A DNA stretch of 64,000 bases from an uncultured Spirochaetaceae bacterium (GCA_964638895.1 CAZWYY010000013.1:2522-66521); one strand, 5' to 3'. Shown: positions 9,244 to 32,300, counted from the stretch's first letter. The notes: a model not told the origin generated them from the sequence alone. A program made the numbers and translations.

Positions 9244-9269
9244 CCGCCGTCTTTGTAAGGAGGATTATT

Positions 9270-12328: not shown

Positions 12329-12377
12329 CGTAATATTAATCCTCAACCTGTTCAGATTTTTCTTACTCAACAGCAGA

Positions 12378-13124: not shown

Positions 13125-13127
13125 GTT

Positions 13128-14111
13128 ATGAGTGATAACATTATCAAAATAAAAAACTTAAAGAAGGTCTTCAAGGTGCGGGTAAAAAGTAAAGAAGGCA
13201 TGTGGGCTTCGGTAAGGCTGCTGTTTAAAGGAGAGTACAAGCTGGTGACCGCGGTTGACGGATTGAGCATGAATGTGAAAAGGGGCGAGATAAAGGGGCT
13301 GATCGGTCCGAACGGTGCCGGAAAGTCCACCACCATCAAAATAATTTCTGGTATTCTTTTTCCCAGTGAGGGTACCGTGGATGTGCTGGGGTTTACGCCG
13401 TGGCTGCAGAGGAGGGAGTACGTCAGGCACATCGGCGTACTCTTCGGTCAAAAAACGCAGTTGTTTTGGGATTTACCCCCTATGGACACCTTTTTACTGC
13501 ACAGGGAAATGTATAAAATACCCGAAAAGCGCTTTCGGAAAAACGTGGCGTATTTTAAACAGGTGCTGCAGCTGGAAGAGGTGGTAAAAAGGCCCGTACG
13601 GAATCTCTCCCTGGGAGAGAGGATGAAGTGCGAGCTGGTGTGCGCCATGCTGCATGAGCCGGAGCTTGTCTACCTGGACGAGCCGACCATCGGGCTTGAC
13701 CTGTTTGCCAAAGAGTCCATCAGGAATTACATCAAGCGGATTAAGAAAGAGAAAAACACCACCTTTATCCTGACCACCCATGATCTGAATGAAATTGAAA
13801 ATATCTGTGAAAACGTCAGTATCATCAATAAGGGCAAAATCGTATATAACGGGGCGCTGGAGAATCTCAGCTCCTTTTTTACAAAACGGAAGATTATCGA
13901 GGTGAAGTTTACGCGGAAAACGGACACGACGGCGCTGGGTAATTTCAAGATTGTTTCCTCCAACCCCTTTTCCGTAAAGATCGAGGTGGACCTGACAAAA
14001 AACAAGATTCAGGACGTCGTGTACGGTATTTTTAACGTACTGCCGGTACAGGACATCAATATACAGGATGTCGGTATCGAGGATATCATAAAACAGATTT
14101 ATACACGGTAA
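13128..14111 (+). CDS. ABC transporter ATP-binding protein with a ~90-aa C-terminal extension
   Basis: GPNGAGKSTT Walker A, LSLGERMKCEL signature, LVYLDEPTIGLD Walker B. Confidence 0.8.
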   Translation: MSDNIIKIKNLKKVFKVRVKSKEGMWASVRLLFKGEYKLVTAVDGLSMNVKRGEIKGLIGPNGAGKSTTIKIISGILFPSEGTVDVLGFTPWLQRREYVRHIGVLFGQKTQLFWDLPPMDTFLLHREMYKIPEKRFRKNVAYFKQVLQLEEVVKRPVRNLSLGERMKCELVCAMLHEPELVYLDEPTIGLDLFAKESIRNYIKRIKKEKNTTFILTTHDLNEIENICENVSIINKGKIVYNGALENLSSFFTKRKIIEVKFTRKTDTTALGNFKIVSSNPFSVKIEVDLTKNKIQDVVYGIFNVLPVQDINIQDVGIEDIIKQIYTR

Positions 14112-15290
14112 ATGAAGTACAGTATTGTAATTCCCACCCATAACAATAAAATCCTCTTGAAAAATACGCTGGAAGCCTTAAACCGCCAAAATGGATTCGG
14201 GAAAGACGATTACGAGGTGATCGTGGTCGACGATGGTTCACAGGACGGTACGTGGCGCTTTATCCGTGGGGTAGGGAGAAACTACGAATTAAAATACCAC
14301 TACCTTGAAAGGTGCAAGGACTCTTGTCGCGCCAGAACCAGGAATTACGGGTGGCGGAACGCCGGCGGTGATATTGTGGCGTTTATCGATTCCGATATCC
14401 TGGTGGCGGATGACTATCTCTTACAGCTTGAACGTTGCTTTTCAATAAGCGAGGATATCTTGTTAATAGGCAACCGCCTCATGCTCAACAAGCCCGTCTC
14501 CCCGGGGAGTATTGCCGGCGGAAGGGTGTTCAGGGATTTTGGTTTTGACGGAAATGATTTCAGTATCCTGGAATTCCGTTATTTTCTGTACGAGGTAGCG
14601 TCTTATAACGCCAATGCCATCATGTGTCCCTGGATGCAGATTTACAGCTGCAATATGGCCGTTTCGCGGAACTGGCTGCACAAGGTCGGGGGTTTTGATG
14701 AGCGCTTCAAGTTTTGGGGCATGGAGGACCTTGAAATCGGTTTTGCCCTTTACGACGCCGGGATCCAGATCGTTATCAATCCCAAGTTGGAGGTTCTGCA
14801 TCAATACCACGGCAGGCGCAATGATCTGGTGGTGGAGCAGAGAAAAATCGCCGGGTATGAAAAAAATATCGATTATTTCCTGGACAAACATCCCCACGCG
14901 CTCCGCATGGGTAGAAAATTCGCCTACAAATTATTCAAGGGGGAAATATCCTCTGATAAAATGCTTATCGACAACAAATGGGAAAAGACCGTGCTGGATT
15001 TCAGGGACAGTACCAGGCTGAATGAGATCAAGGACGTGATTTTAAAATTAAGCGCCAAAGAAAAAATAAAGCCTATTGTCAATGATTATGTTGAGGATAC
15101 AGACCTGGATATCTGGATCAACCTGCTGGGCGTCACACCCAGCGTAGTGAAGTATTTTCCCATGTCGAAAAGGCTCCCTGCGGGCAAGATGCTGAGTTTT
15201 TTGAAAGAGGAGAAAGCACGACAGCTCGGCACCCCGCCGACCGGATCCTGCCGCGAATTTAATACCGATGGAATAAGAAATGCAAATTAG
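14112..15290 (+). CDS. Family 2 glycosyltransferase (paralog of 10452-11528)
   Basis: IVIPTHNN, VVDDGSQDGT, FIDSDI; conserved tail VNDYVEDTDLDIWI...YFPMSKR. Confidence 0.7.
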   Translation: MKYSIVIPTHNNKILLKNTLEALNRQNGFGKDDYEVIVVDDGSQDGTWRFIRGVGRNYELKYHYLERCKDSCRARTRNYGWRNAGGDIVAFIDSDILVADDYLLQLERCFSISEDILLIGNRLMLNKPVSPGSIAGGRVFRDFGFDGNDFSILEFRYFLYEVASYNANAIMCPWMQIYSCNMAVSRNWLHKVGGFDERFKFWGMEDLEIGFALYDAGIQIVINPKLEVLHQYHGRRNDLVVEQRKIAGYEKNIDYFLDKHPHALRMGRKFAYKLFKGEISSDKMLIDNKWEKTVLDFRDSTRLNEIKDVILKLSAKEKIKPIVNDYVEDTDLDIWINLLGVTPSVVKYFPMSKRLPAGKMLSFLKEEKARQLGTPPTGSCREFNTDGIRNAN

Positions 15291-16260
15291 TATCCAACTT
15301 GAGAGGGTTGCCTGCAATATGAAATGTAGGGCATGTTATAATCATGACGGAAACCTCAGGCAAACTTCTCACGGCGCCGAAACCCGAAAATTGTTTTATA
15401 AAATAGAATTTATCAGACAGTCCATGGAGATATTTAAGGATTTATCCGTGGAAATTTTCGGCGGGGAGCCTTTTGTCTCTAAGGAAGAGCTTTATTTTTT
15501 GCTGGAGTATCTGTTTAAAAAAAACATACCGGTTTTTATCGTTACCAATGGAATTTTGCTTAATGAAAAGACCGTAAAACGTATTGCCAAATACGGGAAT
15601 CTGCTGCTTTTGGTGTCTTTTCACAGCTACAGGGAAAGAGGGTACAATTTGTACACCAATTCAAAAGGTAATTACCCCATCCTTGCTAAAAATTTGAAGT
15701 TATTGGTGAAGTATAATATCGATTTTAAACTCACCACCGCATTAATGCGTTTGAATGAAAATTATATCGTGGATCAAATCAGCTTTTTTAAAGAGAGTTT
15801 CAACCGGCCGGTCTACTTGTCATTTATTAATCCCACCTTCAACAATACCGACTGGCTTAAACTGCAGATAATGGCGCCCGCGCAGATACAGGAAACACTG
15901 TTGAGTATCCGCAAAAACCATCCGGATGTGTTGAGTGATATTGATATGGAGTATGTCTTCGATTATTACGACGGGAGATGCAAGGGACAACCATGTGATT
16001 TTATGAGTAAAAACCTGATTTTAAATAATAACGGGGTTTTAAACCTGTGTTTTATCGGTGATACACTGCCCTTTGATTTTTTTGAACTTCCGGACTTAAG
16101 CTCGTATATGGAATACATATATCCAAAAAACCGGGAATTACAAACATCAAATTTTTGTAAAAACAACAGCTGCCAGATATTGCAGGTAACCTGCAGGGAA
16201 AAGTTTGTACCCCGATATAGTACCGCAGGTGAAAAGGAAACAAATTTATGCAAGCATTGA
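15280..16260 (+). CDS. Radical SAM enzyme with C-terminal Cys residues
   Basis: CNMKCRACY, FGGEPF; overlaps upstream gene by 11 nt. Confidence 0.6.
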   Translation: MQISIQLERVACNMKCRACYNHDGNLRQTSHGAETRKLFYKIEFIRQSMEIFKDLSVEIFGGEPFVSKEELYFLLEYLFKKNIPVFIVTNGILLNEKTVKRIAKYGNLLLLVSFHSYRERGYNLYTNSKGNYPILAKNLKLLVKYNIDFKLTTALMRLNENYIVDQISFFKESFNRPVYLSFINPTFNNTDWLKLQIMAPAQIQETLLSIRKNHPDVLSDIDMEYVFDYYDGRCKGQPCDFMSKNLILNNNGVLNLCFIGDTLPFDFFELPDLSSYMEYIYPKNRELQTSNFCKNNSCQILQVTCREKFVPRYSTAGEKETNLCKH

Positions 16261-17681
16261 AACATAAAAAACAGAAGACCAGGCTGTTGCTGCTTCGCCC
16301 TTTTTATGGGATCACGGTTCACGGTGACATGCACGGCGACCTGGGGATCTCCGATCACCATCCGCATATTTACCCGGATCTGTCCTTTATTTACGCGGCA
16401 ACCATCGCCAAACACTCCCGGGTTACAGACCTGCACGTTATCGACGCCAATTCCGGTGAGTTTATGCCGGCGGCCGTATGGACGCAGATGGAGGATTATT
16501 ATGATATCATTATAATAAAAACCGCGGCGCCTACCGTGCGGTATGACCTGATGCTCGCAAAAGAGATTTTGAAGCGTTATCCCTTTTCCAGGGTCATACT
16601 GGCGGGGCAGGCGGCGAATCTCGTCCGAGGCTGGATAGAACGTAATCTGCCGGGCATATATGACATAGCGCGCGTTCCTTTGGAGTATTACGTACATAAC
16701 ATGATTTACGGTAGCCAAGAAATCTGTATGAATGATCTGCCCAGTCCTGATTATTCCCTGTTTCCCTATGAGAAACTCAGGGATATGGACGGGAATTTAC
16801 GCGGCTCGCTGTATACAAGCCGCGGCTGCGCGGTAGGCTGTTCGTACTGCCCGTATTCGCATTTTTACGGGCGTAACATGGAGTTCCGCTCCCCTGAACT
16901 GGTGATAAATGATATCAAACATCTTCTGGCTTTGGGTTTCAAGAAAATTCTTTTTCGCGACCAGTATTTTTCAATCAATCCGAGAAGAACCGAAGAGATC
17001 TGCCGGATGATTCTAAAACAGGGACTCAGGTTCAACTGGGAGTGCGAAACGCGGCTTGAGTCGCTTACGCCGAAGCTCATTAACCTTATGACGACAGCCG
17101 GAATGGATATGGTGTGTTTCGGCGTGGAGACCGCCTCACCGCAAACCCTGGAAACATACAACAGGCCCCCGGTTGACGAGGAAAAACTGGTGAAACTGAT
17201 CAATCACCTGCACACCAGGAAGGTAATGACCATAGCCTTTTACATGATTGGTTTTCCCAGGGACACATGGAGCATAATCCGTCAGACCTATGAGCTTGCC
17301 GTGCGCCTGGCCAGCAACAGCGCAAAATTTTCAATCTTCTCACCCTGTACCCCCCTTGTATATCCCCACCTGGAGCTGACCCCCGCGGAATTCACGCCCC
17401 TTGAGAATACCATGACCACCAATCCCTGTAAAAACCTGAGCAGAAAGGAGCTTGAGTTTCTGGTGGACCATTTGAACAATCTTTACCACACGGACATTGT
17501 GCGAAAAGAATCACGCAAAAAAAACTACATTGAGGTTATCTATAGGTTTCACGTTATGCACCAGATGAGATATCACAGCCTGGTAAAATACCTTAAAAAA
17601 AAGCTTGCGGAAGATAAAATCTTCAATATTGCCGTAAAAAAAGTCCAAAGGAGAAGAGCAAATGCATACAAGAGGATTTGA
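16248..17681 (+). CDS. B12-binding-domain radical SAM enzyme (class B-like)
   Basis: N-terminal LLLLRPFYG Rossmann-like region, then YTSRGCAVGCSYCPY. Confidence 0.6.
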   Translation: MQALKHKKQKTRLLLLRPFYGITVHGDMHGDLGISDHHPHIYPDLSFIYAATIAKHSRVTDLHVIDANSGEFMPAAVWTQMEDYYDIIIIKTAAPTVRYDLMLAKEILKRYPFSRVILAGQAANLVRGWIERNLPGIYDIARVPLEYYVHNMIYGSQEICMNDLPSPDYSLFPYEKLRDMDGNLRGSLYTSRGCAVGCSYCPYSHFYGRNMEFRSPELVINDIKHLLALGFKKILFRDQYFSINPRRTEEICRMILKQGLRFNWECETRLESLTPKLINLMTTAGMDMVCFGVETASPQTLETYNRPPVDEEKLVKLINHLHTRKVMTIAFYMIGFPRDTWSIIRQTYELAVRLASNSAKFSIFSPCTPLVYPHLELTPAEFTPLENTMTTNPCKNLSRKELEFLVDHLNNLYHTDIVRKESRKKNYIEVIYRFHVMHQMRYHSLVKYLKKKLAEDKIFNIAVKKVQRRRANAYKRI

Positions 17682-18831
17682 AAGCAACAAGGGAACCATT
17701 AAAGGCCCCAAGAAGATGCAGGGCAGGTACTGCCTGCAGCCGTTTACCAATATTGATATTCACTCCAACCATGGGGTCCGCTGCTGCAGTGAGTCCTGGA
17801 TGCCGTCGTGGATCGGGGATTTTTCCACGCATAACCTGAAGCAAATTTGGAACGCGCCCGCCATCCAGGCCATACGGCAGAGTATTTTGGACGGAAGTTA
17901 TTCATTTTGTGATTGGCATCAATGTCCTTTTTATTGCAATGACTCCTATTACCTGTACTCGCGGGAGGAGTTGGAGAATCCGCAGGGCCTTGGAGGGGTG
18001 GACGCATACAGACTTGCGAAATACGCGCCATGGATCAGGTATATTCTGCAGGAAAAAACCGAACTCGACATCCTGCCCGCCAATTACAACCTGGCCTATG
18101 ATGAAACCTGTAACCTGGCCTGCCCCAGCTGCCGCAAAAAAAGGGTGGCTTTCAGGAAGGGGGCGGAGTATACCCTGCGCTTGGGGATTCATAACAAGCT
18201 GTTAAAGGAGGTTAAGGAGAACGGGTTTGAACATATCGGACGCTTTAACCTGACCGGCTCCGGTGAACCCTTTGTGTCTCGTATTTTCACTGATTTTCTC
18301 TATAACTTTGACGGCGGGAAGTATCCGCGCCTGGATATTAATATTCAATCCAACGGGGTTCTCTTTACTCCCGCGGCCTGGGCCAGGATGAAAAAAATCC
18401 ACGTTAATATCAATGAGGTTATTATTTCATTGGACGCCTGCTGTGCCGAGACCTATAAAAAAATCCGGGTAAACGGCTCCTATAAAAAACTCCTGGTCAA
18501 CATTGAATTCCTGGCCGCGCTGCGCGCACAGGGCAAGATCCGCCGTTTTATGCTGGCTTTTGTGGTACAGCAAAAGAATTACCGTGAAATGCCCCGGGCC
18601 GTAAAAATGGCGAAATACTACGGCGCGGATCTTTTTATCTTTAATCTGTTAAACGACTGGAAATCGTGGAGTCCCCGGGATTATGAGGCAAACGCTGTGT
18701 GGAAGAGTTTTCATCCGGAATTCGAGGAGTTTCTGGGGGTTTTAAGGGATCCCGTGTTCAATGACCCCATTGTTGACCTAGGTAACATGATCGAGTATCG
18801 CAATAGGGCCTATTCTTATGCCGGGGCTTAA
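17662..18831 (+). CDS. Radical SAM enzyme with an N-terminal Cys-rich region (related to family A)
   Basis: CLQPF...HGVRCCSESW...CDWHQCPFYC, then CNLACPSC and LTGSGEPF. Confidence 0.6.
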   Translation: MHTRGFESNKGTIKGPKKMQGRYCLQPFTNIDIHSNHGVRCCSESWMPSWIGDFSTHNLKQIWNAPAIQAIRQSILDGSYSFCDWHQCPFYCNDSYYLYSREELENPQGLGGVDAYRLAKYAPWIRYILQEKTELDILPANYNLAYDETCNLACPSCRKKRVAFRKGAEYTLRLGIHNKLLKEVKENGFEHIGRFNLTGSGEPFVSRIFTDFLYNFDGGKYPRLDINIQSNGVLFTPAAWARMKKIHVNINEVIISLDACCAETYKKIRVNGSYKKLLVNIEFLAALRAQGKIRRFMLAFVVQQKNYREMPRAVKMAKYYGADLFIFNLLNDWKSWSPRDYEANAVWKSFHPEFEEFLGVLRDPVFNDPIVDLGNMIEYRNRAYSYAGA

Positions 18832-18857: not shown

Positions 18858-20249
18858 ATGAATATATTTCCAAGCACGTTTCATCGAAAAAAGCCCATGC
18901 TCATAATGTCCAATGGAAGCGAGCGCGGGGAGTTTGTGCCGATCGGGCGTATTTTTTCATGCACGCAGAGAATACATGACGGTATCCAGGCCTTAAAGGC
19001 TTATTATCCGTACGAGGCCAACTGGTCACCGCATCATAAAATATCCGAGGTAAGCCGCCGGGAAGAGGTGGATTTTGCCTGGGGCTATGAGTATGAGGAT
19101 TACCATCCCTTCAACCTGAATGCACGGGGGGGTGACTGCCGGGGGCAGTTCGAGGATATTAAGCGTTACGGGTCGGATCTGCACCTGACATTGGCCATGG
19201 ACCTTTCGCTGGGCGACAGGGATATAGAAGAGGTGATACGATCTTTAGGGCCGTACGGGCGCATATTCTTAAGGATTAACCATGAATGTAACGGCAACTG
19301 GTTCCGCTTTAATAAATACCACAGTTACAAAGAGGTAAACGATTTTTTTGTCCGCTGCCACCGGATTGTGAAGGCCAATTCATCACAGATATTTACGGTC
19401 TTCAGTTTAAGCGGGGATTTTTTTGCCCGGGAAAAGGTGGTCAGCGACTTCTTTTTACGGATCGCACCGGATGAGATGAGAGAAGCGCTTGAGCTGGCCG
19501 ATTATTGGTCCCTGGACAGGTATTCTTCTCTGCACTACGGCTGGCCCTTTGAGCAGACCATAAACCCAGAAAGCACGAATTCGTATTTCAAGGGCACGGC
19601 GGATGACTGGTGGCATTTAATTGAAGAGTGCTACCTCAGCATGATCTGGCATAACGGTTTGAAAATGAAACCGCTGTTCATTAATGAGTTTAATGCGGAT
19701 TCCAACGTTGACGGCCTTCAGGTTCAGGCGGAAATCGTGGGCAGCGTTTATGATAGGCTGTCAAGGGGAGATTTCGCCTGGCTTGCCGGAATCGCCTTTT
19801 ATCAGTACCGCGACCTGGGAGGACTGGGCCTGGAGAAGGGAAACACGGATAAGTTCTCCGAGAACCCCGTACTGGAAGTGTATCGCCGGGCCGTGAACAC
19901 CATACGCTACCATACAAAAATCGAAGACTGGCAGGAATGGCCGCGGGGCGAGTACTATTTCTCCTGGTACAACTCCGATTCCATCCGTGGATTATGCGTT
20001 CGCGGCGCCGGGGAACAAAAACAGTTTACCAACATCCTTCCGGTTCCGGTATACCTTGTGCTTGAAGAACAGCAGTGGGTGCGGCTTGAATCCGGGCAGG
20101 CATGCGGTATAAACGGACAGGAGCAGTTTTTTATGCTTGTGCCTCCCTATGTGGATGCGGCTGATAGAATTCAATATTCATTTGAGGTGCGGGACATTAA
20201 ACAGGCTTTGGGCCGGATGATGGCGGTGAAAAGTGAAATCTGCAATTAA
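18858..20249 (+). CDS. Hypothetical protein, possibly a TIM-barrel glycoside-hydrolase-like fold
   Basis: 463 aa, no Cys cluster; weak motifs LRINHECNGNW and FINEFNADSN; RBS GGGGGG upstream. Confidence 0.25.
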   Translation: MNIFPSTFHRKKPMLIMSNGSERGEFVPIGRIFSCTQRIHDGIQALKAYYPYEANWSPHHKISEVSRREEVDFAWGYEYEDYHPFNLNARGGDCRGQFEDIKRYGSDLHLTLAMDLSLGDRDIEEVIRSLGPYGRIFLRINHECNGNWFRFNKYHSYKEVNDFFVRCHRIVKANSSQIFTVFSLSGDFFAREKVVSDFFLRIAPDEMREALELADYWSLDRYSSLHYGWPFEQTINPESTNSYFKGTADDWWHLIEECYLSMIWHNGLKMKPLFINEFNADSNVDGLQVQAEIVGSVYDRLSRGDFAWLAGIAFYQYRDLGGLGLEKGNTDKFSENPVLEVYRRAVNTIRYHTKIEDWQEWPRGEYYFSWYNSDSIRGLCVRGAGEQKQFTNILPVPVYLVLEEQQWVRLESGQACGINGQEQFFMLVPPYVDAADRIQYSFEVRDIKQALGRMMAVKSEICN

Positions 20250-21315
20250 TAATTATTTAGACGCGGAGCAAACCGAGGAAGAAATTAAGCGCGGGTTCGA
20301 GGAAAATATCTCCGCTTACCTGGACTGCCGCTATGCCGTCCCGGTTGTCAATGGCACGGTTGCGCTTGAGGTTGCCCTGCGCGGGCTGGGCCTCTCACGG
20401 GGAGACTGCGTTATTGTGCCTGATATCTCCTTCATCGCCACGGCCACGGCCGTGGCCAATTGCGGCCTGGTGCCGGTGTATGCGGATGTAAGTCCCACAT
20501 ACTTCGGACTTACCCTGGAAACACTGCAAAACAGGAATTGTTCCGGGGTAAAAGCCGTGGTGCTGGTACATTTTTCCGGGTTTGTCAACAGGGAGCTGTT
20601 TGAGATAATCGAATACTGTTACAGTAACGGCCTGGCCCTGGTGGAAGACTGCGCCCAGGCGTTTGCCTGTACGGCCCACGGTAGAAAGGTGGGCACCTTC
20701 GGCGACGCGGGCGCGTTCAGTTTTCAATCCTCCAAAAGTATAAGCGCCGGTGAAGGGGGGCTTGTCTGCACCGACAAGCGGCACCTGGCCGCGCAGTTCC
20801 AGGCCGTTTCCGACTGGGGGATGAGCCCCTTGTTTAAGCGCCGAAAACTTGCGCTTGCCAGCAGCAACTTCCGGCTCAGCGCCCTGCAGTGTTATGTTTT
20901 GGGCCGGAAACTCGAACATATCGACAGCACGGTAGCGGCAAGACGCGAACGCTGCGCCCGGTTGGAAGACGCCTGCCGCGAACTGGGCCTGGAACACTGT
21001 CTGCCTGCCCCCAGACCGGAATATTTTGACTGCCCCTTCTTTTTTCCGCTGAAAAGCGCGCGCAAACTTAACAGCATAGAGCCCCGGGAAGAGTCTCCCC
21101 TGCATAGATCCGCCATAGTAGTCGCCATTCTGGAACGCTTTTACCCGGATCTGCTGAAGCGGTATTATGAACTCAATCCTCCCGGGGTCATGTCGGAATT
21201 CGCCGGCAACAAGGTTATTACTGATATTGATTTTATCAACATCAGCCAAACATGGAATCTGCCCGCGGATCAGGTAGTGTCTGCGTACAAGGAGGCGGTG
21301 TTATGTCGGAAATAA
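20233..21315 (+). CDS. DegT/DnrJ/EryC1/StrS-family PLP-dependent (sugar) aminotransferase
   Basis: VNGTVALEVAL, GDCVIVPDISFIATA, FSFQSSKSISAGEGG (PLP Lys). Confidence 0.75.
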   Translation: MKSAINNYLDAEQTEEEIKRGFEENISAYLDCRYAVPVVNGTVALEVALRGLGLSRGDCVIVPDISFIATATAVANCGLVPVYADVSPTYFGLTLETLQNRNCSGVKAVVLVHFSGFVNRELFEIIEYCYSNGLALVEDCAQAFACTAHGRKVGTFGDAGAFSFQSSKSISAGEGGLVCTDKRHLAAQFQAVSDWGMSPLFKRRKLALASSNFRLSALQCYVLGRKLEHIDSTVAARRERCARLEDACRELGLEHCLPAPRPEYFDCPFFFPLKSARKLNSIEPREESPLHRSAIVVAILERFYPDLLKRYYELNPPGVMSEFAGNKVITDIDFINISQTWNLPADQVVSAYKEAVLCRK

Positions 21316-22325
21316 TGGCCCTGCGGCACCAGTTTGAAAAAACCGAAAATATTCTGCTTGTAGACTGGTGTGTCAGCAATATCTGTAATTTCGCCTGCTC
21401 GTATTGCCCGGAACATACCCACGCGGGTACGCATCCGTTTATGCCAATTAAAAATATCCTACTGTTTTCGGACCGGATTGTGGATCACTACGTAAAGAAA
21501 CTGCATAAAGAGGTCTATTTTCTTTACACGGGTGGCGAGGTGACCTTGTATAAGGATTTTATTCCCCTGATCCGCACTCAAAAAGAGAACGGCCACCGTG
21601 TGAGTATCAGTACCAATGGATCGCGCAGGTTGTCCTTCTGGCAGGAGGTTAAAAAATACCTGTTCCAGGTAAGCATGAGCTACCACGATGAGTATACGGA
21701 CCTGGATCATTTCATCAATGTAATAAACCTGATAAAGTCGGACACCTATACCCATGTTAATATCATGGTCCAGCCCGACCGCTTCCAGCAGTGTCTGGAC
21801 GCGGCCTACCGGGTGCTGCATGAAACCGATGATATCACCATCGATCTCCAGATTGTGTTGAGGGATTTCATCGAGCCTTACCCATATACAAATCAGCAGC
21901 GCAGGCTCATCATCGCGGTGGGTAAGGAAATCAACGGCAAACTGAAACTAAAACGCAAGCGGGACAGTTACCGCGGGCTGATGAAACTTGTGTTTCGTGA
22001 CGGCTCACACGAGTTGGTAAAACCCGGTGATCTTCTAACAAGAAATTTGCACGCCTGGCGGGGCTGGAGCTGTTACATTGGTCTTGAGATCCTGGTGGTT
22101 GATCTGAACGGTGATATCTACAGGAGCTGGTGCGGCGACGCCGGTAAAATCGGGAATATTAATGATGAACAGATACACTTTCCCACAAAACCGCATATCT
22201 GCGGCAGGGCCTATTGCAGCGGGGGGATCACCGACACCATGGTCACAAAAATCAAGGAGGCATGTAATGAGCAGCCGGACGACAGCCGGAGTGTTCTCGC
22301 CGTTTACAATCAGGGACGGGTTTGA
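21303..22325 (+). CDS. Radical SAM enzyme, family B (paralog of 2333-3358)
   Basis: CNFACSYC, YTGGEVTLYKDF, C-terminal WRGWSCYIGL...CGRAYC; AAGGAGG RBS before ATG 21303. Confidence 0.7.
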   Translation: MSEIMALRHQFEKTENILLVDWCVSNICNFACSYCPEHTHAGTHPFMPIKNILLFSDRIVDHYVKKLHKEVYFLYTGGEVTLYKDFIPLIRTQKENGHRVSISTNGSRRLSFWQEVKKYLFQVSMSYHDEYTDLDHFINVINLIKSDTYTHVNIMVQPDRFQQCLDAAYRVLHETDDITIDLQIVLRDFIEPYPYTNQQRRLIIAVGKEINGKLKLKRKRDSYRGLMKLVFRDGSHELVKPGDLLTRNLHAWRGWSCYIGLEILVVDLNGDIYRSWCGDAGKIGNINDEQIHFPTKPHICGRAYCSGGITDTMVTKIKEACNEQPDDSRSVLAVYNQGRV

Positions 22326-23292
22326 GCTGTCCAACCGGATAGTGTTCGCCCCCGTATACATAAACAGGGCAAACGAGTCCGCTGAGTTCAGGAATTTCTA
22401 CGCCGGGCGGGCCAAGGGCGGCGCCGGGCTGATAATCACGCCGGTTCAGACAATGGGGGGCTTTACCGATCTTTATACCCCGGCCTTCCGCAAGGCGGCA
22501 CGCATGCTTCTGGATGAATGCAGGGCGCACGGAGCCCGGGTTATCCCGCAGGTATTTTCCGGTGTGGGAGCCTGGGTAAACCGGATGAGTACGCGGGAGC
22601 TTTCCCGCCTGCCTGAGGCCTTCGCGCTCTGCGCACTTAAACTGCGTGAGGCCGGATACCCCGGCATGGAGATTCACGGTGCGCATCACAGCCTGTTCAT
22701 GCACCTGCTGTGCCCCGGTATTAATCAGCGTACCGACCGTTATAACGGCGGTTTGGAGGCAAGAGCCGCCCTTCAGGTTGAAACCGTAAAAGCCGTTAAA
22801 GCCGGGGCGGGACGGAATTTCAGCCTTTTTTACCGCTTGAGCGCCACGGACTTCACTGCGGGAGGTTTTGATATTATCCATGCCGTGGATGTTGCCCGGA
22901 TGCTTGAGCGGGCCGGCGCGGACTGTCTTGATATTTCGGCGGGAGGGACCTCAATCAGCCCCACGGGTTCCGAATGCCCGGACCATACACAGCCGGAGTC
23001 TTGTTTCCGTTCATATTTCAGTAAAGTGAAACGGGCCGTAAAGATTCCCGTAATCGGCGCGGGCAGAATCAACTCACGCGCGGCCGCCGAAAAAATTCTG
23101 GTACAGGGAAGGGCCGACCTGATCGCCCTAGGCAGGACGCTGGTGGCTGATCCCTTCTGGCCGCTTAAAGTCAGACAGGGGAGGGAGACGGAGATTCTGC
23201 CCATGAACGAATGGTATAAATATATGCCCGGGTACCGCTCGGCGGAGCAACATGCCGCGACAGGCGATGGCGCCCTTGGAACTAAAGTATAA
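22267..23292 (+). CDS. Old Yellow Enzyme family NADH:flavin oxidoreductase
   Basis: MEIHGAHHSLFMHLL, RTDRYNGGLEARA, GGFDIIHAVDVARMLERAGADCLDISAGG; start uncertain (ORF track 22111, first ATG 22267). Confidence 0.75.
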   Translation: MSSRTTAGVFSPFTIRDGFELSNRIVFAPVYINRANESAEFRNFYAGRAKGGAGLIITPVQTMGGFTDLYTPAFRKAARMLLDECRAHGARVIPQVFSGVGAWVNRMSTRELSRLPEAFALCALKLREAGYPGMEIHGAHHSLFMHLLCPGINQRTDRYNGGLEARAALQVETVKAVKAGAGRNFSLFYRLSATDFTAGGFDIIHAVDVARMLERAGADCLDISAGGTSISPTGSECPDHTQPESCFRSYFSKVKRAVKIPVIGAGRINSRAAAEKILVQGRADLIALGRTLVADPFWPLKVRQGRETEILPMNEWYKYMPGYRSAEQHAATGDGALGTKV

Positions 23293-23307
23293 AGGGAGGG
23301 TTTTCTG

Positions 23308-25038
23308 ATGAGGACCGTGACAAATAAACTGGACAATGGCTATGAGGTGGAGATGGACCCCGGTGCTGAGTTCATTGTGCATGAGATCTGGGACGATTTG
23401 TTTTATGACCGTGATTACCACATCGGACGCGGTGATATAGTCCTGGATATCGGGGCGAATATAGGCATATTTTCGCTTTTCGCCGCATACCGCGGGGCCC
23501 GGGTCTATGCCGTGGAACCGGATGAACATAACTACAATCTATTGTGCTCGAATATTGAAAGGAACGGACTCGGCCGCCGGATTCATCCCATTTTCTGCGC
23601 TGCCGCCAAAAATGACGGTACTATAGCGCTTTACATCCCCCCTGCGGAAAAATTATGCGCGTCCGGCATGATAACAACCTCGCTTGCCCAGATAGAGAAG
23701 CTTACAGGGCATGACACTTCCGGGGTCAGTGTAACCAGGGTGAAATCCGTCTCACTCCCCGGCCTGCTGAGGCAAATAGCGGAAGCGCACATCTCCCTAT
23801 TAAAACTGGATACCGAAGGCGCGGAACTGGATATTCTTCTCGGAACGGACGCGGACGATCTGCGATCCGTGGAGTGCATAGTCATGGAGACACACTCATC
23901 CTATACCGAGCGGGAGCTTTATCACCGGGTGCGCAGGCTGGGATTCGACGTTATCAGTTATGAAAAGCGCACCGGACCTTTCTTAACCGGCTATCTTTAC
24001 GCAAAGAAGGCCCGGGCGGGAAGGCCTGCCGGTCGTACCAGGCCCGTCGCCATCCTCACTGTTCCCGGGAGTGTGGATTCCCCGAACAGTGCCATCGCAG
24101 ACGCCGGACAGAGTTTTTCAACCGTAAACCCGGATTGCTGCGGTCTCGGTTACCGTTTCAGCGTGGATGGGAAGGAGGAACCATTTTCCACCGATCCTGT
24201 CCGGCATATACATTTTAAGAAACCGGGACTTCACCGCATTTCAGTTGATATTCTGGAAGGCGGTATTGACAACTGCAGGCAGAAAAACATGCCGGCCGGT
24301 TTCGGCAGCGACCGGGCCGAGAAAACAGTATGGGTTTTCACCGAGCACTACGGACCGTCCCCGCGCGCCCTGGCCCTGCCCGAACTGGGGAAAAAAAAGG
24401 AGTTTACCGTTTCCGCCCAAACAGAGTTTTTCATACCGGCAGAGAACATTCCCAAGCAATGGGATTATGACGCCCTGGGTATCGGTGTAGGTCTATTGGA
24501 CACGCCCGAAAACCCGGAAGAACCGCACATCAGCCTGCTACATAACGGGGTGCGGACCAAAATCACCTCAAGTTACCAGGAGGTCATTATTCCCGCTTTT
24601 CCCAGGGGGCGCGATCTTTGTTTTTCTTTCGAAAGCGCGTGCAATTTCCGGGTATGCCTGCATTGGTTTGCCAGAGTCGGGGCGGAGGCTCCCGTGCTTC
24701 CGGTGCTTGATTGCCGTAACAGCCGAGGACAGCTTCTTGGAGAAAAATCATCGGCGCATATCTGCCTGTTCGAAGGTGAGGGCCGTTTGGTGGTCGCGCG
24801 GGAGTTATTGCCGAAAACATGGAATCCGGTCTGTGTAAAGATCTGTTTTTCGGTGCACGAGCGGGATACCACAGGAAAGGAACTGGAGGGCGAACTGGTG
24901 TTCAAGGGGCGTTGTTTCACATTACTGGGTTGGTATAAGGAAATTAACTTCAGCGGGGAGGAGATCCGTAACAAAATGGAGTATATGGTGCGGGTGCCGT
25001 GCGCCCGTGTCTATCAGGTTACCTGGTGGCCCGAATAA
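23308..25038 (+). CDS. FkbM-family methyltransferase with C-terminal unknown domain (paralog of 5007-6734)
   Basis: LDIGANIGIFSLFAA, VEPDEHNY; C-terminus YQVTWWPE. Confidence 0.65.
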   Translation: MRTVTNKLDNGYEVEMDPGAEFIVHEIWDDLFYDRDYHIGRGDIVLDIGANIGIFSLFAAYRGARVYAVEPDEHNYNLLCSNIERNGLGRRIHPIFCAAAKNDGTIALYIPPAEKLCASGMITTSLAQIEKLTGHDTSGVSVTRVKSVSLPGLLRQIAEAHISLLKLDTEGAELDILLGTDADDLRSVECIVMETHSSYTERELYHRVRRLGFDVISYEKRTGPFLTGYLYAKKARAGRPAGRTRPVAILTVPGSVDSPNSAIADAGQSFSTVNPDCCGLGYRFSVDGKEEPFSTDPVRHIHFKKPGLHRISVDILEGGIDNCRQKNMPAGFGSDRAEKTVWVFTEHYGPSPRALALPELGKKKEFTVSAQTEFFIPAENIPKQWDYDALGIGVGLLDTPENPEEPHISLLHNGVRTKITSSYQEVIIPAFPRGRDLCFSFESACNFRVCLHWFARVGAEAPVLPVLDCRNSRGQLLGEKSSAHICLFEGEGRLVVARELLPKTWNPVCVKICFSVHERDTTGKELEGELVFKGRCFTLLGWYKEINFSGEEIRNKMEYMVRVPCARVYQVTWWPE

Positions 25039-25062
25039 CATGGATGATGATGGGAATATTAC

Positions 25063-26457
25063 ATGAGAATCGTACTGATAATCTTGCCCTGCTGGTCGGT
25101 CAATACGCCGCCCCTGGGCATATCTTACATTGCCGCTGCCTTAAGAAAGGCGGGGTATGACGTCACCGTATTTGATTTAAACACAAGGTTATGGAATGAG
25201 TTTAAAGCGGATGAGGACGACCTCTGGGAATCACGCAATCACACAAAATGGGAGTTCCATGATGATTTTATCGGATACGTGTTGCCGCATATTAAACACA
25301 GGCTTGATTATCATATAAAAAGAATAATCGACGGCGATTTTGACATTGTCGGATTTTCCGTTTTTATCACCTCCCTTAATACGACAAAATATTTTATAGA
25401 AGAAATAAAAAAAGAGAAACCGGAAACAAAAATTATTTTCGGCGGTCCGGGGGTGGATATCTATGAAATAAAAAACAGTCTGAAAAAAGGATTTGTCGAC
25501 GCCGCGATCGTCGGAGAAGGTGAGGAGGCAATCGTCGGTTTGCTTTCAAGATGGAAAACAGGCGATGATATATTGGGGATACCGGGCATTATTGCCAAAA
25601 GTAAAACCGGGAGGTTTGTTTTTTCGCAGGGTGCGCTTATTGAAATCCTTGATAATCTGCCCCCACCCGATTTTAGTGATTATAGGGACCTGACCTATTC
25701 CGACAAAAGGCTTCCGATAATGATGAGCCGCGGATGCATCGGTTCCTGCAGTTTCTGCTCCGAAGTTAAATATTGGAAGAAATTCCGCAGGCGGTCGGCT
25801 TTTCATATCTATGAGGAGATCGAAACGGACGTAAAAAAGTATGGGATATCAAAATTTATTTTTGCCGATTCGCTGATCAACGGAGATCATAAAATACTGG
25901 AAGAACTGGTGGATTTAATACTGGAAAACGGGTTGGAGATTACCTGGTTGGGAAACGCGAGAATTGACGGAAGATTAACCAAAAATTTACTGCAAAAAAT
26001 GGCTGCCGCCGGATGCGCCTGTTTGATGTATGGATTGGAGAGCGGCTCACCGAAGATCTTGAAATTGATGAAAAAGGGAATCAGACTCGAAGAAGCCCGG
26101 CGGGTTATCAGGGATACCTGTAATGCGGGAATTGAGGTGCAGATAAACATGATCGTCGGGTTCCCGGGTGAAACGGAGGAGGATTTTTGCAGCAGCCTTG
26201 ATTTTCTGTTTAAAAATCAGGTCTTCATTAATGTAGTGAATACCGGTGTTCCCTTAGGAATCGGCCCCAACATGGAACTATACGAACATCCCGAGAAATA
26301 CGGGATAATGACCAATAAATACGGGAAAGTATTTTATGATGAGAATGATTCATGGATGACTATCGACAAAAAAAATACGTATCCTGTGCGCTATAAGCGG
26401 TTATTACGCATGCGAGAATTTTTAGCGTATAATCATATAGACTATAATCCAAGGTAA
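25063..26457 (+). CDS. B12-binding-domain radical SAM enzyme
   Basis: MRIVLIILP...GISYIAAALRKAGYDV B12-like N-terminus; MMSRGCIGSCSFCSE. Confidence 0.7.
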   Translation: MRIVLIILPCWSVNTPPLGISYIAAALRKAGYDVTVFDLNTRLWNEFKADEDDLWESRNHTKWEFHDDFIGYVLPHIKHRLDYHIKRIIDGDFDIVGFSVFITSLNTTKYFIEEIKKEKPETKIIFGGPGVDIYEIKNSLKKGFVDAAIVGEGEEAIVGLLSRWKTGDDILGIPGIIAKSKTGRFVFSQGALIEILDNLPPPDFSDYRDLTYSDKRLPIMMSRGCIGSCSFCSEVKYWKKFRRRSAFHIYEEIETDVKKYGISKFIFADSLINGDHKILEELVDLILENGLEITWLGNARIDGRLTKNLLQKMAAAGCACLMYGLESGSPKILKLMKKGIRLEEARRVIRDTCNAGIEVQINMIVGFPGETEEDFCSSLDFLFKNQVFINVVNTGVPLGIGPNMELYEHPEKYGIMTNKYGKVFYDENDSWMTIDKKNTYPVRYKRLLRMREFLAYNHIDYNPR

Positions 26458-26477: not shown

Positions 26478-27722
26478 ATGATCCGCACAATGAACAAAAA
26501 AAGGCTTTCAATTCAGAAGAGAAGTATTCACATGGTAAAAGAACAGCCCGTATTCGTGATTCGTAATAAAATCCATACGTTTATCAGGCGGTTGGATTTT
26601 AAGGTGTATGTTCAGTATAAGGTATGCGGACGGGAAAAACAAAAACTCATGGCTGTGGGAACCGTTAACGGCGGGGACCTTGAGACTCTGCGGATAAACC
26701 TTTGTGCCTTTGGTTTCAAACTTACTATTATAGACACACCGCATTACCGGGGTCTTTACGGTCAGGCCCCTTCAGGGATATACGGGCTGTTTTTATCACC
26801 CAAGCGGGAAATCATCTCATTGAACCAGGATATCCTGAATCAAACCCTGCTTGAACAGCCCATATTCGAGCTGAATCGATTCGGTAAGGAGCACGGGATT
26901 GAGGACCTGGTGTTTCTGGAATATGAAGCCTGCCTTTCACTCTGGGCATGCCTGGATCGGGTATTTGCCGAACTGCTTGGAATCTCCTATCCTGAATTGC
27001 TTTTTACAAAATATAAAAACAGCCATAACCAATATATCAGAAACTACCTGAAACTTAAACGGAATGCGGAAATCTTTCATTATGATCCGGAATATGCCGG
27101 TAACAACATTGCCTTGTTTAGTTGGATATATTGCCTGGAAGTAAAAATAACCGAGGAACTGGTAAGAGGTGAAACGGTTTCCCTTCATGACACGGGCACA
27201 AGCCTGGCCCATTTTCCCCTGCTTTTAAGCGGATTATCCTGCGCTCAACTCTTTGGCTTGAAGATTGGCGCGATTTCAGCCTCGGACAAAGTCTGGACCG
27301 GGCAGGGGTATATAGAGAGAATACTCCGGGAGAATCCGCATTACAGAAAAATCGATTTCGTACGGGCCGATTTGACCAAAGACATGGAGCTGTTACCTGA
27401 ATCCGATGTAATCATTTTAAATGATGTTTTGGAGCACCTGCCGGATGACCGCACCGCATTCGCGGTCTTACACGGGCTTTGGAACAAGGCCGGCAGACTA
27501 CTGATTGCCCACGTGCCGTTGGAATCCGAACCGAACGCGGCCTGGGATCACCATATTTCGTTTACCCCCGAGAAGATCCGTGATTGGTCGCGTTCATTGC
27601 CGGGGGGGTGTGTGCGTTCCGACACCTATTCCGCCGGCGACATAAGCCTGACCGCTTTGGGTTTTTTCATCATAACAAAAAACAACTTATCATCATCAGC
27701 AGGACAGCGGCACCGGCACTGA
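26478..27722 (+). CDS. Class I SAM-dependent methyltransferase with an N-terminal unknown domain
   Basis: VIILNDVLEHLPDD motif in C-terminal half; last gene of the co-directional block. Confidence 0.45.
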   Translation: MIRTMNKKRLSIQKRSIHMVKEQPVFVIRNKIHTFIRRLDFKVYVQYKVCGREKQKLMAVGTVNGGDLETLRINLCAFGFKLTIIDTPHYRGLYGQAPSGIYGLFLSPKREIISLNQDILNQTLLEQPIFELNRFGKEHGIEDLVFLEYEACLSLWACLDRVFAELLGISYPELLFTKYKNSHNQYIRNYLKLKRNAEIFHYDPEYAGNNIALFSWIYCLEVKITEELVRGETVSLHDTGTSLAHFPLLLSGLSCAQLFGLKIGAISASDKVWTGQGYIERILRENPHYRKIDFVRADLTKDMELLPESDVIILNDVLEHLPDDRTAFAVLHGLWNKAGRLLIAHVPLESEPNAAWDHHISFTPEKIRDWSRSLPGGCVRSDTYSAGDISLTALGFFIITKNNLSSSAGQRHRH

Positions 27723-29330: not shown

Positions 29331-32300
29331 TTATTCCATTTCCTGAAGTTCCGTAAAACCAACTGTTTTATTTTTTCCGGTTTTTTTGGCATGGCTCATT
29401 GCACGTTGTGCCATTTCCAAAAGCAGGTTTTTAATATCCTGTTTTATTTTTTGAATACCACGCCAATCCGTACTTTCCTCAAGGTTCATTTCAAAGACGG
29501 CCTTAAGATCTTCTATGTTAAGCTTCGAGCAAATATAGCCGCCGTTGTCTATCAATGATGAAATTCCCAGGCTGGCACTCAAGGTGATTTTTTTTCCTCT
29601 TGCGGTGATTTGTGTGCTTTCAATGGTATGCCGAAGCTTTTCAGCATATGAATGCGCCTGTTCGAGTGTGGTCTCGGGCAGTATGATCAAAAACTCCTGT
29701 GCGTTGTAGCGCCCGGCCCGGTAGTATCCCCGAAGCGAATCCTTGATTATTCTTCCTGCGTCGGCAAGAATCGCGTCACCGGAACGGTATCCGAACTCCT
29801 TGTTTAAAGCGGTAAAATCATCAAGATCAAACAGGATTACCGAAAGGTGCCGGTATACGCGCAGCATAAGCAGGTCTTCCAGTGAAACCATGATTGTGGT
29901 CCTGTTGGCAAGCCCGGTCAGGCTGTCGAGGGGTGCCTGGTTAAGCAGCTGCAGGTACTCCATATGCCTCCGCATATGGATATCGACACTTACCAGGAAC
30001 TCCTTTTCGTCAATCGGTTTGGTGAGAAAGGTCAGCACGCCTTTTTCCTTTCGTTCCTGGATGATGCGTTTGTCGGTCATCACGGTCAGGAAAAGCACGG
30101 GTGTCTGTTTTAAATACGGATTTGAGGCGATTATATCTTGCATTTCATCCCCGCGCATCTTGGGCATATTATAATCCGAGATGATCAGGTCGACGCCGTA
30201 TTTATACACGGCATCGATCGCGTCCCTGCCGTTGGTGGCGGTGATAAAATTCATATACCCGGCCTTTTCCAGATACTCCTTGACAATGGCCCGGATGGGC
30301 TCGTCGTCATCCACGATGAGGATTACCCCTTTTTTGGGATCATACTCGTTTTCCCTGTTTCGCTCGGGGAAAAAGGTCTGAATCTCCTCTTTTTGCAGGC
30401 TGTCCTTGATATTTGATTTGATAATTTTTTTCAATTGAGAACGCTTTGAGAGATCCGACGGTTCATTTGCGTTTTGGCTGTCAATACTCAAATCATAAAA
30501 GGCCTCCGTACCTTTTTTAAACTCCAGAATAAAACAGGCTCCCTTTCCGGGGCCCTCGGACTCGGCCCGGATTGAACCCCGTAGGTAGCGGGTAAGCTCT
30601 TTCGCGAAGGCCAGCCCGATACCCGTGCCCGCGTACCTGTTATTGTGATGTTCATCCAACTGCTCGAACCTGCCGAAGATTATTTCAAGCTTATCCCGGG
30701 GAATTCCTATGCCATTGTCGCGGACCCTGATTTCCACCGTAGTTGCTTTATTGAGTAATGAGATGGTGATTATCCCTTTGCGCGGGTCAACAAACTTCAG
30801 TGCATTGGATACCAGGTTATGCAGAATCTCTTCCAGTTTATCCACATCGGTATAAAAATCTTCTATTTCATGTTCGGGCAGGCGACTTTGAATGGTTACC
30901 CCGGACGAGGCCGTGGCCGATTTATAGAAATTGATTATATTTTCAATATAGGCCTTGAGTCCTAGCTTTTGAATCCGTAGTTTGATGCCCAGGGCGTCCA
31001 TCTTTGCCAGGTCCAACAGCCTGTCTATGGTTTGTTTAAGTTTCACGGACGCTTCATAGATGATATTATACCGGTCTATGACCTCATTAAAATGCTCCTT
31101 AGTATCGGACATAAGGCCGAGCCGGGCGGAGTTGAGAATTACCGTCAGGTGGGACCGAAAATCGTGCGTAATATTGGCTATAAAATCGTTTTTTAAGCGG
31201 TCCAGGTCGGACAGCTTTTTATCTTTTTCTATAATCTCCTGCATCATCATGGAAGCCTTAAGTGAGCTTCTAATCAGCTCACTTAAGGCCAGGCTGGATA
31301 TCTCCTCCAGTGGGTTAAACTCCAGGCCCACAAAACCCATCTGTTCCTGCCTGAAGATAAGGGGCTGGAAGATGATATTGTAGCGGCGCTTCAGTTTTAC
31401 AACTTCTTTAGGGAGTAAATGCCTGGCCGTGTACATATACCCTGTTTTCCCCAAGGGAATCCGGCCGTTTTCATTATAGGCAAGCAATAGACAAGCTATT
31501 TTATAAATTTTTTCCGCGGCCGTATGCACCGAAAGATAACAGCTTTTTATCCCGATCCGGGGAAGCTCAACGGCAAGGTTATCCATGAGTGTGGGTACAT
31601 CAAAAGACCCGATAAAGGTATCGATTACATACTGCAGGGTTTTGGTGGTGTCAGCAAGCCTCAGTCTCTTGTCGGATTCGAAGTGTTTGGCCATATCTTT
31701 GATCATAATCCTGGCCTGGTGCAGCATGTTTTCGGCTTTTATCAGTTGATCGGGGTTGGTGCGGAGATAAGGCAGCATGATTTTCCGCAGACTCGAGATA
31801 GTATTTCCCCAGACCATATCATCCATACCCGCGGGCCAGGATCTGTGCAAAGCCTTATCGAGTCTGGGCAGGAATATATTCGATTGTGTATCGATACTTA
31901 ATTCAGTCTGAAAAGCGTCGATCACATCCTCAACAAACGGGGTGATGAAATTTTGGGATATGGGCCCATTATGTTCGTTCAGTTCATGCAGCAAAGAGGT
32001 TTTAATGCTGTCAAAACCGGGCTTAGAGGCGTTTTTGGGCGTGTCCTTCCCGGACGGGGCCACCCTCCCCGTTTCGTGCGAAAGGCAACCGCATGAGCGC
32101 CTGATTATTACCTTGGTCTTGAACAGTTCCAAATCAGGCACCGGCTCTCCCCTTATTTTTTGCAGCAGGATCTCGGCGGCACGTTTGGACATTTCAAAGG
32201 TCGGCTGACGCACCGTGGTGAGCGGCAGAAAAAGGTGGCGGGCGCTCCGGATATCATCAAAACCGGTAACGGCCACCTGGTCTGGAATAATGATATTACG

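Follow-up and report, generated by a model that had tools for sequence, protein, structure and literature searches.

Does an operon that carries two sets of the same rare enzymes owe the second set to a duplication in place, or did the two sets have separate histories before they came together? This question is raised by a 64,000-nucleotide stretch of DNA, hereafter the window, from an uncultured Spirochaetaceae bacterium (GCA_964638895.1, CAZWYY010000013.1:2522-66521). Open reading frame (ORF) calling revealed 24 closely spaced or overlapping genes on the + strand, from 43 to 27722, that form an operon (g01-g24, Table 1). Ten of them are of the radical S-adenosylmethionine (rSAM) type, all the enzymes of the operon are predicted to be soluble, and glycosyltransferase family 2 (GT2) enzymes and ABC exporters are also encoded. 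The original prediction, which was made from the window alone, held that the segment 21303-26457 is a second module mirroring that of the first 6.7 kb and that it arose by duplication and divergence within the operon, with an Old Yellow Enzyme (OYE)-type reductase and a B12-binding rSAM enzyme inserted into it. We consider it probable instead that two cassettes of one type, whose divergence is ancient, were merged in this operon around one glycosyltransferase/ABC-exporter block, with a sugar-tailoring chemistry. The sequence comparisons argue strongly for the evolutionary part of this reading, and the case for its biochemical part is circumstantial. Both cassettes contain an rSAM enzyme with an N-terminal SPASM/twitch domain (the A type), a second kind of rSAM enzyme (family B) and a methyltransferase with an FkbM domain, a PKD-like domain and a double β-sandwich that ends in WWPE (FkbM-WWPE).

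The gene content on which the prediction was based is correct. ORFs for a B enzyme, an OYE, an FkbM-WWPE protein and a B12-binding rSAM enzyme lie exactly at 21303-26457 with family matches above cutoff, and Pfam and NCBIfam matches together with a motif check confirmed A, pseudo-B, B, carrier protein, A and FkbM-WWPE genes (g01-g06) in the first 6.7 kb. The B and FkbM-WWPE genes are indeed repeated, as g20 and g22 are full-length homologs of g03 and g06. In an all-against-all BLASTP comparison g03 and g20 shared 34% identity over 304 aa (E 1e-64), and g06 and g22, which align over their full length, 25% across the full 575 aa (E 3e-47), so that the homology of both pairs is far above chance; the pseudo-B protein g02 was 26% identical to g20 (E 3e-37) and 33% to g03.

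Homology of this kind does not place the two copies next to each other in a tree. Relatives were gathered for g22, g06 and g20, and an exhaustive profile search was made with the C-terminal 337 residues of FkbM-WWPE. In the resulting 126-sequence tree of the B family, g20 belongs to a clade of 33 members and g03 to a clade of five, with its ortholog from locus L007 (L numbers designate loci in other genomes) and two pseudo-B proteins, and the lineages of g03 and g20 meet only at the root of the tree. Bootstrap values were 100/100 for g20 with its Spirochaetota orthologs, for the entire OYE-linked g20 clade, for the pseudo-B pair and for the clade that joins the pseudo-B proteins with the B enzymes of cassette 1, and 98/100 for g03 with the B enzyme of L007. 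When relatives were ranked by identity to g20, g03 was 123rd of 125, and the orthologs of g20 in six other species showed 54-79% identity to it, against 32-34% in the comparison with g03. The same picture was obtained for the 45-member tree of the FkbM-PKD-WWPE proteins, where g06 (with P0169, P0014, P0173, P0194 and P0181; bootstrap 94/100) and g22 (97/100) sit in separate deep clades. Here g06 is 37th of the 44 relatives of g22, which shares 45-65% identity with its own orthologs (47-64% when measured by BLASTP) and 26% with g06. An exclusive group of g03 with g20, or of g06 with g22, was recovered in 0/100 replicates.

At the DNA level, blastn between the two modules found only two patches of 73 and 32 nucleotides, both over conserved motifs. 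Thus neither mark of a recent segmental duplication within the operon, paralogs that are each other's closest relatives or residual DNA similarity, is seen, and the paralogs share 25-34% identity versus 39-79% for orthologs in other genomes. The pairs are thus no more alike than members of their families in general, which is the outcome that the original prediction had itself named as its refutation. Taken together, the comparisons show that the B and FkbM-WWPE copies are deep paralogs, each inherited with its own cassette. The closest paralogous pairs in the operon are others, namely the GT2 proteins g10 and g14 (53% identity) and the A enzymes g01 and g05 (53.5%). These pairs are likewise no closer to each other than to homologs elsewhere: the GT2 of L004 shares 61-62% identity with both g10 and g14, and the A enzyme of L133 shares 54% with g01 and 48% with g05.

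The second cassette has a wider distribution that defines its limits. Orthologs of g16-g22 occur in the same order in three other Spirochaetota metagenome-assembled genomes (MAGs), with identities to the window genes of 64-81% (L001/L015), 47-79% (L006/L016) and 47-76% (L004/L017). In L001, L004 and L006 we found none of g15, g23 and g24 and no cassette-1 gene within 10 kb, and two fused ABC exporters follow the cassette in place of g23. A short-chain dehydrogenase/reductase (SDR) of the epimerase/dehydratase type precedes the g16 ortholog in L001 and L006, and nothing is present there in L004. Since L001 and L006 also share the genes downstream of the operon in the window (g25, a 223/236-aa gene, an SDR gene, the gene at 34114-34785 and an Lhr-type helicase gene), cassette 2 lies at the same chromosomal site in them. 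In a scan of species-representative genomes with the pattern [FY]TGGEVT[LMY][YFW], to which g03-type proteins also conform, each of these three MAGs yielded one B locus only. Beyond Spirochaetota, the core g17-g18-g19-g20-g21 was found in the cultured [Clostridium] polysaccharolyticum DSM 1801 and in two Gammaproteobacteria, a Marinimicrobium MAG and a Steroidobacteraceae MAG, and is therefore present in all six g20-clade species, across three phyla. These non-Spirochaetota loci (L018, L019 and L020) are accompanied by an ABC-2 transporter like that of g11-g13. Orthologs of g17 (57-81% identity) and g18 occur in 6/6 of these genomes, and the B and OYE genes are adjacent in every one. Four of the six have g16, with 55-74% identity in the three Spirochaetota and 44% in C. 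polysaccharolyticum, four have FkbM-WWPE, and an SDR epimerase/dehydratase accompanies five of the six related loci.

Cassette 1 was found on its own in L133, as an eight-gene block of A, pseudo-B, B, FkbM-WWPE, carrier and g07-, g08- and g09-like genes with 38-66% identity to their counterparts, and in part in L007, where the same order is kept on a shorter contig. Compared with L133, which has a single A gene, the window has g05 as an additional A gene, and its carrier gene lies at a different position. Identities to the L133 and L007 orthologs are 58% and 68% for g03, 38% and 39% for g02, and 66-71% for g04 in the two loci; g01 is 54% identical to the L133 enzyme, and the order of g07, g08 and g09 after the carrier is kept there with 51%, 58% and 64% identity. 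The transporter block can also be found in a different setting, as L056 has a homologous GT2/ABC-2 block (55-60% identity, or 55-64% with g09) plus two further FkbM-WWPE genes and one A-like gene. From these distributions the two cassettes evidently move independently between genomes and phyla.

The boundaries set by the original prediction have to be moved on both sides, even though the mirror image it described goes deeper than it stated, because g17 of cassette 2 has the N-terminal twitch architecture of the A enzymes. The conserved units are g16-g22 (16248-25038), with g23 outside, and g01-g09, so the segment 21303-26457 consists of the downstream half of cassette 2 and of the later-acquired B12-binding rSAM gene g23. 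Nor was the OYE gene inserted into a duplicated module, as g21 is ancestral to cassette 2. The B12-binding rSAM gene was not inserted in one either, being a lineage-specific gene of low GC content beyond the conserved cassette. The GC contents of g15 and g23, which bracket cassette 2, are 0.379 and 0.425 compared with 0.46-0.58 in the neighboring genes; this and their absence from the orthologous loci make both genes look like recent additions. In g23 a B12-binding domain (PF02310, cutoff 32.1) accompanies the rSAM domain, which makes it a class B rSAM enzyme, and it belongs to no named subfamily, its best NCBIfam match being TIGR03975 with 158 bits against a cutoff of 281.85.

A duplication of the first module within the operon, followed by divergence and by insertion of the OYE and B12-rSAM genes, would account for the same families occurring in one operon in a similar order, with B 5' of FkbM-WWPE. 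We nevertheless regard it as highly improbable. The B tree has g03 and g20 at its two extremes, and they are never paired in the replicates. Moreover, six other species have cassette 2 but not cassette 1, L133 has cassette 1 only, and the OYE gene is an original part of cassette 2. It is reasonable to propose that the same kind of tailoring unit is used twice on one product, given that the two segments draw on the same rare families and share a densely packed operon with its only transporter/glycosyltransferase block.

Table 1. Genes of the operon and of its downstream flank, with positions in the window
Gene	Product	Position	Strand	Remarks
g01	'A' rSAM, N-terminal SPASM/twitch	43..1323	+	Cassette 1 gene 1; SPASM residues 18-85, Radical_SAM 131-294 (Pfam)
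g02	Pseudo-B	1320..2330	+	B-family paralog; CxxxCxxC lost, C-terminal Cys motifs kept
g03	B rSAM, cassette 1	2333..3358	+	Radical_SAM 35 bits; CNYRCSYC
g04	Acyl/peptidyl carrier protein	3423..3695	+	PP-binding 42.7 bits
g05	Second 'A' N-twitch rSAM	3717..5003	+	SPASM 19-86, Radical_SAM 130-285 (Pfam)
g06	FkbM-PKD-double-β-sandwich methyltransferase, TWWPE end	5007..6734	+	PF05050 66.6 bits; TIGR01444 101.6 bits
g07, g08, g09	ATP-grasp-like ligase, GT-B-like, rSAM-SPASM	6753..10442	+	Remainder of cassette 1
g10-g14	GT2 (g10, 10452-11528), ABC-2 type exporter (g11-g13), GT2 (g14, 14112-15290)	10452..15290	+	Shared transporter/glycosyltransferase block (Pfam)
g15	Small rSAM	15280..16260	+	Radical_SAM 62.9 bits; left edge of cassette 2
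g16	Class-B-like rSAM	16248..17681	+	Radical_SAM 65.4 bits; cassette 2 gene 1
g17	A-like rSAM, N-terminal SPASM/twitch	17662..18831	+	SPASM 24-88, Radical_SAM 149-287; cassette 2 core
g18	463-aa protein, GH26/clan-GH-A-like signature	18858..20249	+	Cassette 2 core
g19	DegT/DnrJ/EryC1-type PLP aminotransferase	20233..21315	+	PF01041 203.9 bits; cassette 2 core
g20	B rSAM, cassette 2 (twitch-type, BlsE/viperin-like fold)	21303..22325	+	Radical_SAM 43.5 bits; CNFACSYC
g21	OYE-family flavin oxidoreductase	22267..23292	+	PF00724 (Oxidored_FMN) 152.2 bits; cassette 2 core
g22	FkbM + PKD-like + two β-sandwich domains, TWWPE end	23308..25038	+	PF05050 65.5 bits
g23	B12-binding rSAM	25063..26457	+	PF02310 70.4 bits; PF04055 72.6 bits
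g24	414-aa protein, weak class-I methyltransferase signature	26478..27722	+	Last operon gene; Methyltransf_11 E 0.0077, below cutoff
	1218-aa hybrid (periplasmic sugar-binding, histidine kinase, receiver, GGDEF)	29331..32987	-	Beside the locus
	SDR	33142..33996		Shared with L001 and L006
	Gene shared with L001 and L006	34114..34785

Both B enzymes have the CxxxCxxC motif and exceed the PF04055 cutoff of 29.5 bits, so they are radical SAM proteins. They are not viperins, as they score 44.5-48.4 bits against the cutoff of 180 (NF038283/PADLOC pVip). The nearest fold to g20 is that of the nucleoside-sugar enzyme BlsE (PDB 7vob), and within the group of BlsE, viperin, DesII and BtrN the sequence identity to g20 is only 12-18%. 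The cassette-1 enzyme g01 is a member of the N-terminal twitch rSAM family NF033640 (N_Twi_rSAM, 366 bits, cutoff 170), a family with, to our knowledge, no assigned function; g17 scores 64 bits against the same cutoff and is not a member in spite of its N-terminal SPASM/twitch layout. The best NCBIfam matches of g16 (PhpK, HpnJ and AprD4) are all below cutoff. No Pfam match was found for g18, and a profile of seven orthologs matches the glycoside hydrolase family 26 (GH26) protein endoglucanase H with E 8e-5, the match being centered on an invariant NHExNG motif; E143 and E277 are also invariant. The aminotransferase g19 is a clear DegT-family protein (PF01041 cutoff 19.8 bits) whose nearest NCBIfam relatives LegC, PseC and DesI are all below cutoff (LegC 139 against 420). 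The lysine of its FSFQSSK sequence is invariant in six orthologs, and from the family motif we take it to be the Schiff-base lysine. An assignment of g19 as an E1-type dehydrase dependent on pyridoxamine phosphate was rejected, as the catalytic lysine is retained. The OYE assignment of g21 (PF00724 cutoff 27 bits) agrees with an HGAHH sequence (the H-x-x-H pair) that is invariant in six orthologs, and g21 fits no specific equivalog, the best being mycofact_OYE_2 with 167 against 793. The g21 ORF spans 22111-23292, but alignment with five orthologs places the true start at the ATG at 22267. The 59-nt overlap of g20 and g21 that this leaves (22267-22325) is due to a C-terminal extension of g20 of about 18 residues, which has a predicted local distance difference test (pLDDT) score below 50 and is missing in the orthologs.

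The methyltransferases g06 and g22 have an unusual architecture. Like other members of the FkbM family (PF05050 cutoff 22.7 bits, TIGR01444 cutoff 37.7 bits), both pass the thresholds in their N-terminal 235 residues (g22 with 83.6 bits for TIGR01444), where a class-I methyltransferase fold is modeled; unlike them, they have about 340 extra C-terminal residues, with a PKD-like immunoglobulin-type domain, two sandwiches for which Pfam has no model and a WW[PA]E end. The AlphaFold (AF2) model of g22 (pLDDT 85.5) has the FkbM methyltransferase at 1-235, an all-β region at 245-345 and two tandem β-sandwiches of about 105 aa with identical strand patterns at 350-460 and 461-576. Direct hmmscan of g22 gave no PKD match, and the assignment of residues ~245-345 as PKD comes from a profile whose positions 5-90 match hundreds of multi-repeat proteins, of which the three that were checked all carry PKD_4/PKD. 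The two sandwiches are an internal duplication (hhalign probability 98.6%, E 5e-16). HWFA closes the first of them and TWWPE the other, which identifies the WWPE tag as the final strand of repeat two. The whole architecture is rare, as 1.8 billion representatives contain only ~45 clusters (50% identity) that have it, and in 11 out of 11 contexts seen an rSAM gene is no more than two genes away from FkbM-WWPE. A metagenome scan with the full FkbM alignment retrieved mostly generic FkbM proteins, with family members at 5 of 80 loci. A homolog of the last gene of the operon, g24, with 31% identity adjoins another FkbM-WWPE gene in L055.

Directly upstream of g03, the pseudo-B protein g02 matches no Pfam or NCBIfam family, PF04055 included, and lacks CxxxCxxC, as do its orthologs in L007 and L133. 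The pseudo-B clade is sister to the g03 clade (bootstrap 100). The arrangement of a pseudo-B gene directly 5' of a live B gene is seen in four lineages (window 1320-3358, L007 429-2572, L133 1423-3472 and L047 7622-9709) that include a Bacillota MAG, and the dead copy of L047 also lacks the motif. At least some of the Cys-rich motifs near the C-terminus are retained in the dead copy, which points to a pseudo-enzyme that is maintained as a partner. The majority of B-family members come from predatory bacteria, in Bdellovibrionota loci (L023-L045, e.g. L032, L042; L013 10950-15473) where as many as five or six N-twitch (A-like) rSAM paralogs form arrays, together with several B-like genes. These loci also carry GT2 proteins containing a region similar to B-family proteins, and no FkbM-WWPE gene was seen in them.

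Outside Spirochaetota and within it, the cassette-2 core repeatedly lies in the company of genes for glycan catabolism or sugar regulation: a GH94 phosphorylase gene within the cassette in L018 (10358-12754), GH116 and GH5+RicinB genes flanking it in L012 (1199-4534 and 19296-20885), and LacI and PfkB genes near it in L001 (823-1842 and 15177-15971). An HSP33 chaperone gene lies just 5' of the epimerase gene and cassette 2 both in L001 (1-820, Spirochaetaceae MAG) and in L018 (2251-3135, C. polysaccharolyticum), which is either a coincidence or a trace of the transfer of a larger fragment. The 1218-aa hybrid protein encoded beside the operon also occurs in L006 (18966-21734) and not in L001, and a possible function is the regulation of the cluster through sugar sensing and c-di-GMP. 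Promoter and terminator scans within the operon gave no more than chance level.

What the merged operon makes can be approached from its enzymes, which probably tailor and export a sugar-derived product that may be a surface glycan, a glycolipid or a small molecule. The constant adjacency of the B and OYE genes, the DegT and SDR partners and the fold neighbors point to a radical deoxygenation-reduction-amination on a nucleotide- or nucleoside-linked sugar, a sequence analogous to those of DesI/DesII, BlsE/BlsH and AprD4/AprD3. In cassette 2, the SDR would oxidize or epimerize a sugar linked to a nucleoside diphosphate or a nucleoside, the BlsE/viperin-like B enzyme would then abstract a sugar hydrogen and eliminate a hydroxyl to give a keto-deoxy or enone sugar, g21 would reduce the activated C=C or C=O bond and g19 would install an amine. 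The two other rSAM enzymes of the cassette may carry out further C-H chemistry. The FkbM-PKD-WWPE protein would methylate the product, with the glycan or carrier held by its PKD domain and its tandem β-sandwiches, and a further C-methylation in this genome is probably due to g23. An analogous round on, or with, a moiety bound to the carrier protein could be performed by cassette 1, which may alternatively contribute a second, differently tethered moiety, and the ABC-2 transporter would export the product.

Several points weigh against this proposal. Since tblastn detected no homolog of the SDR anywhere in the window, the first step of the proposed pathway must be supplied by genes located elsewhere or by the ~2.5 kb of this contig that the window does not cover. 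No glycosyltransferase is encoded in the minimal cassette-2 loci (L001, L006 and L012), which means that the product need not be a polymer and that a small molecule may be the substrate. The chemical steps are all assigned from family or fold resemblance, at 12-18% identity, and we know of no member of either cassette that has been characterized. The carrier protein and the weak GT-B match of g08 fit a lipid or glycolipid equally well. As for the evolutionary part, the trees are neighbor-joining trees from distance matrices and not maximum-likelihood trees, and the absence of cassette 1 from the other Spirochaetota is judged from MAG assemblies and one peptide pattern.

A product of another kind has to be considered in view of these points. 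A lipid or glycolipid, in which a carrier-bound acyl chain would be modified by the A and B enzymes and the methyltransferases, glycosylated on a diacylglycerol-type anchor by the UgtP-like g08 and the GT2 enzymes and flipped by the ABC exporters, agrees with the PP-binding carrier, with the weak match of g08 to a processive diacylglycerol glucosyltransferase (E 0.007), with MsbA-like fused exporters in the relatives and with sub-threshold matches of g16, g20 and g23 to Tes, rSAM_ladder_B12, HpnJ and HpnR. We think this unlikely, because fatty-acid synthase, ligase and acyltransferase genes are absent, cassette 2 has no carrier and a core of sugar-nucleotide-type enzymes, and the matches to lipid families are far below cutoff. 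Were the product instead a ribosomally synthesized and post-translationally modified peptide (RiPP), peptide maturation would fall to the rSAM, SPASM and B12-rSAM enzymes, peptide methylation to the FkbM proteins and no more than decoration to the sugar genes. Weak NCBIfam matches of g01, g09 (an rSAM protein with a C-terminal SPASM domain), g15 and g23 to the PapB, WgkB and TIGR03975 maturases, the fused ABC exporters in related Spirochaetota loci and the weak match of g07 to the ATP-grasp peptide ligase 8ynd (E 1.8e-5) could be read in that way. The maturase matches are nonetheless all far below the family cutoffs, the gap-free operon contains no small precursor ORF and no leader peptidase, and a conserved core of DegT, SDR, GH26-like and OYE proteins with a B enzyme whose nearest fold is BlsE makes a RiPP very unlikely. 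There is next to no chance that the viperin-like B enzymes belong to an anti-phage defense locus. PADLOC pVip does match g20, g03, g01 and g17 (E 1e-8 to 1e-14) and viperin_w_prok is among the two best NCBIfam matches of g03 and g20, but the pVip matches of g20 and g03 span only positions 1-100 of the 257 of the profile, the generic rSAM core, with 44-52 bits against the cutoff of 180, and these genes belong to a biosynthetic operon of 24 genes that also encodes glycosyltransferases, an aminotransferase and exporters and has no other defense genes.

Returning to sugar tailoring by two merged cassettes, none of the known systems is a close match. The proteins BlsE (7vob, from the blasticidin S pathway), viperin, DesII and BtrN, rSAM enzymes of the twitch/SPASM kind that act on sugars or nucleotides, share the 12-18% identity mentioned above with g20, for which membership of their group was not seen at the sequence level (MoaA E ~0.008 in the PDB), and their systems have no OYE flavoenzyme partner as g20 does. 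AprD4 (family name in NCBIfam NF033070) and AprD3 are an rSAM 1,2-diol dehydratase and its separate reductase. In the same manner, the g20 gene is immediately followed by that of a dedicated reductase, g21, and the pair is kept in all six genomes; AprD4 is also the third-best NCBIfam match of g16, with 80 bits against a cutoff of 500. Unlike AprD3, g21 is an OYE/FMN enzyme, and no aminoglycoside pathway genes are present. Glycan pathways that depend on ABC transporters have methyl-capping enzymes such as the WbdD-type terminators, and the operon resembles them in its GT2 enzymes, its ABC-2 exporter and its methyltransferases with extra non-catalytic domains. It differs from them in having no Wzm/Wzt matches, no kinase and no coiled-coil ruler, and in its ten rSAM-type genes and carrier protein. 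A literature search returned nothing usable on this gene combination, on N-terminal twitch rSAM enzymes in glycan clusters or on the BlsE/BlsH mechanism. A GH-like dehydratase (PMC12983305) offers a loose precedent only.

Finally, the duplication that had been proposed within the operon turns out to be ordinary shuffling of cassettes between gene clusters. A further possibility, which we put forward only tentatively, is that the core of SDR, N-twitch rSAM, GH26-like, DegT, BlsE-like rSAM and OYE proteins together with a dedicated ABC exporter constitutes a previously unrecognized, horizontally mobile pathway for an exported small molecule that is derived from an amino-deoxy sugar and tailored by radical chemistry. 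Its product may be, for example, a glycosidase-directed metabolite, and the FkbM-PKD proteins and the dead/live B pairs may be new functional modules, the former a substrate-holding methyltransferase and the dead B a pseudo-enzyme partner. The B-OYE pairing, the dead/live B tandem and the rare FkbM architecture each suggest a new sugar-tailoring chemistry and substrate-recognition module, and the presence of the core in the cultured C. polysaccharolyticum DSM 1801 makes this chemistry experimentally accessible.

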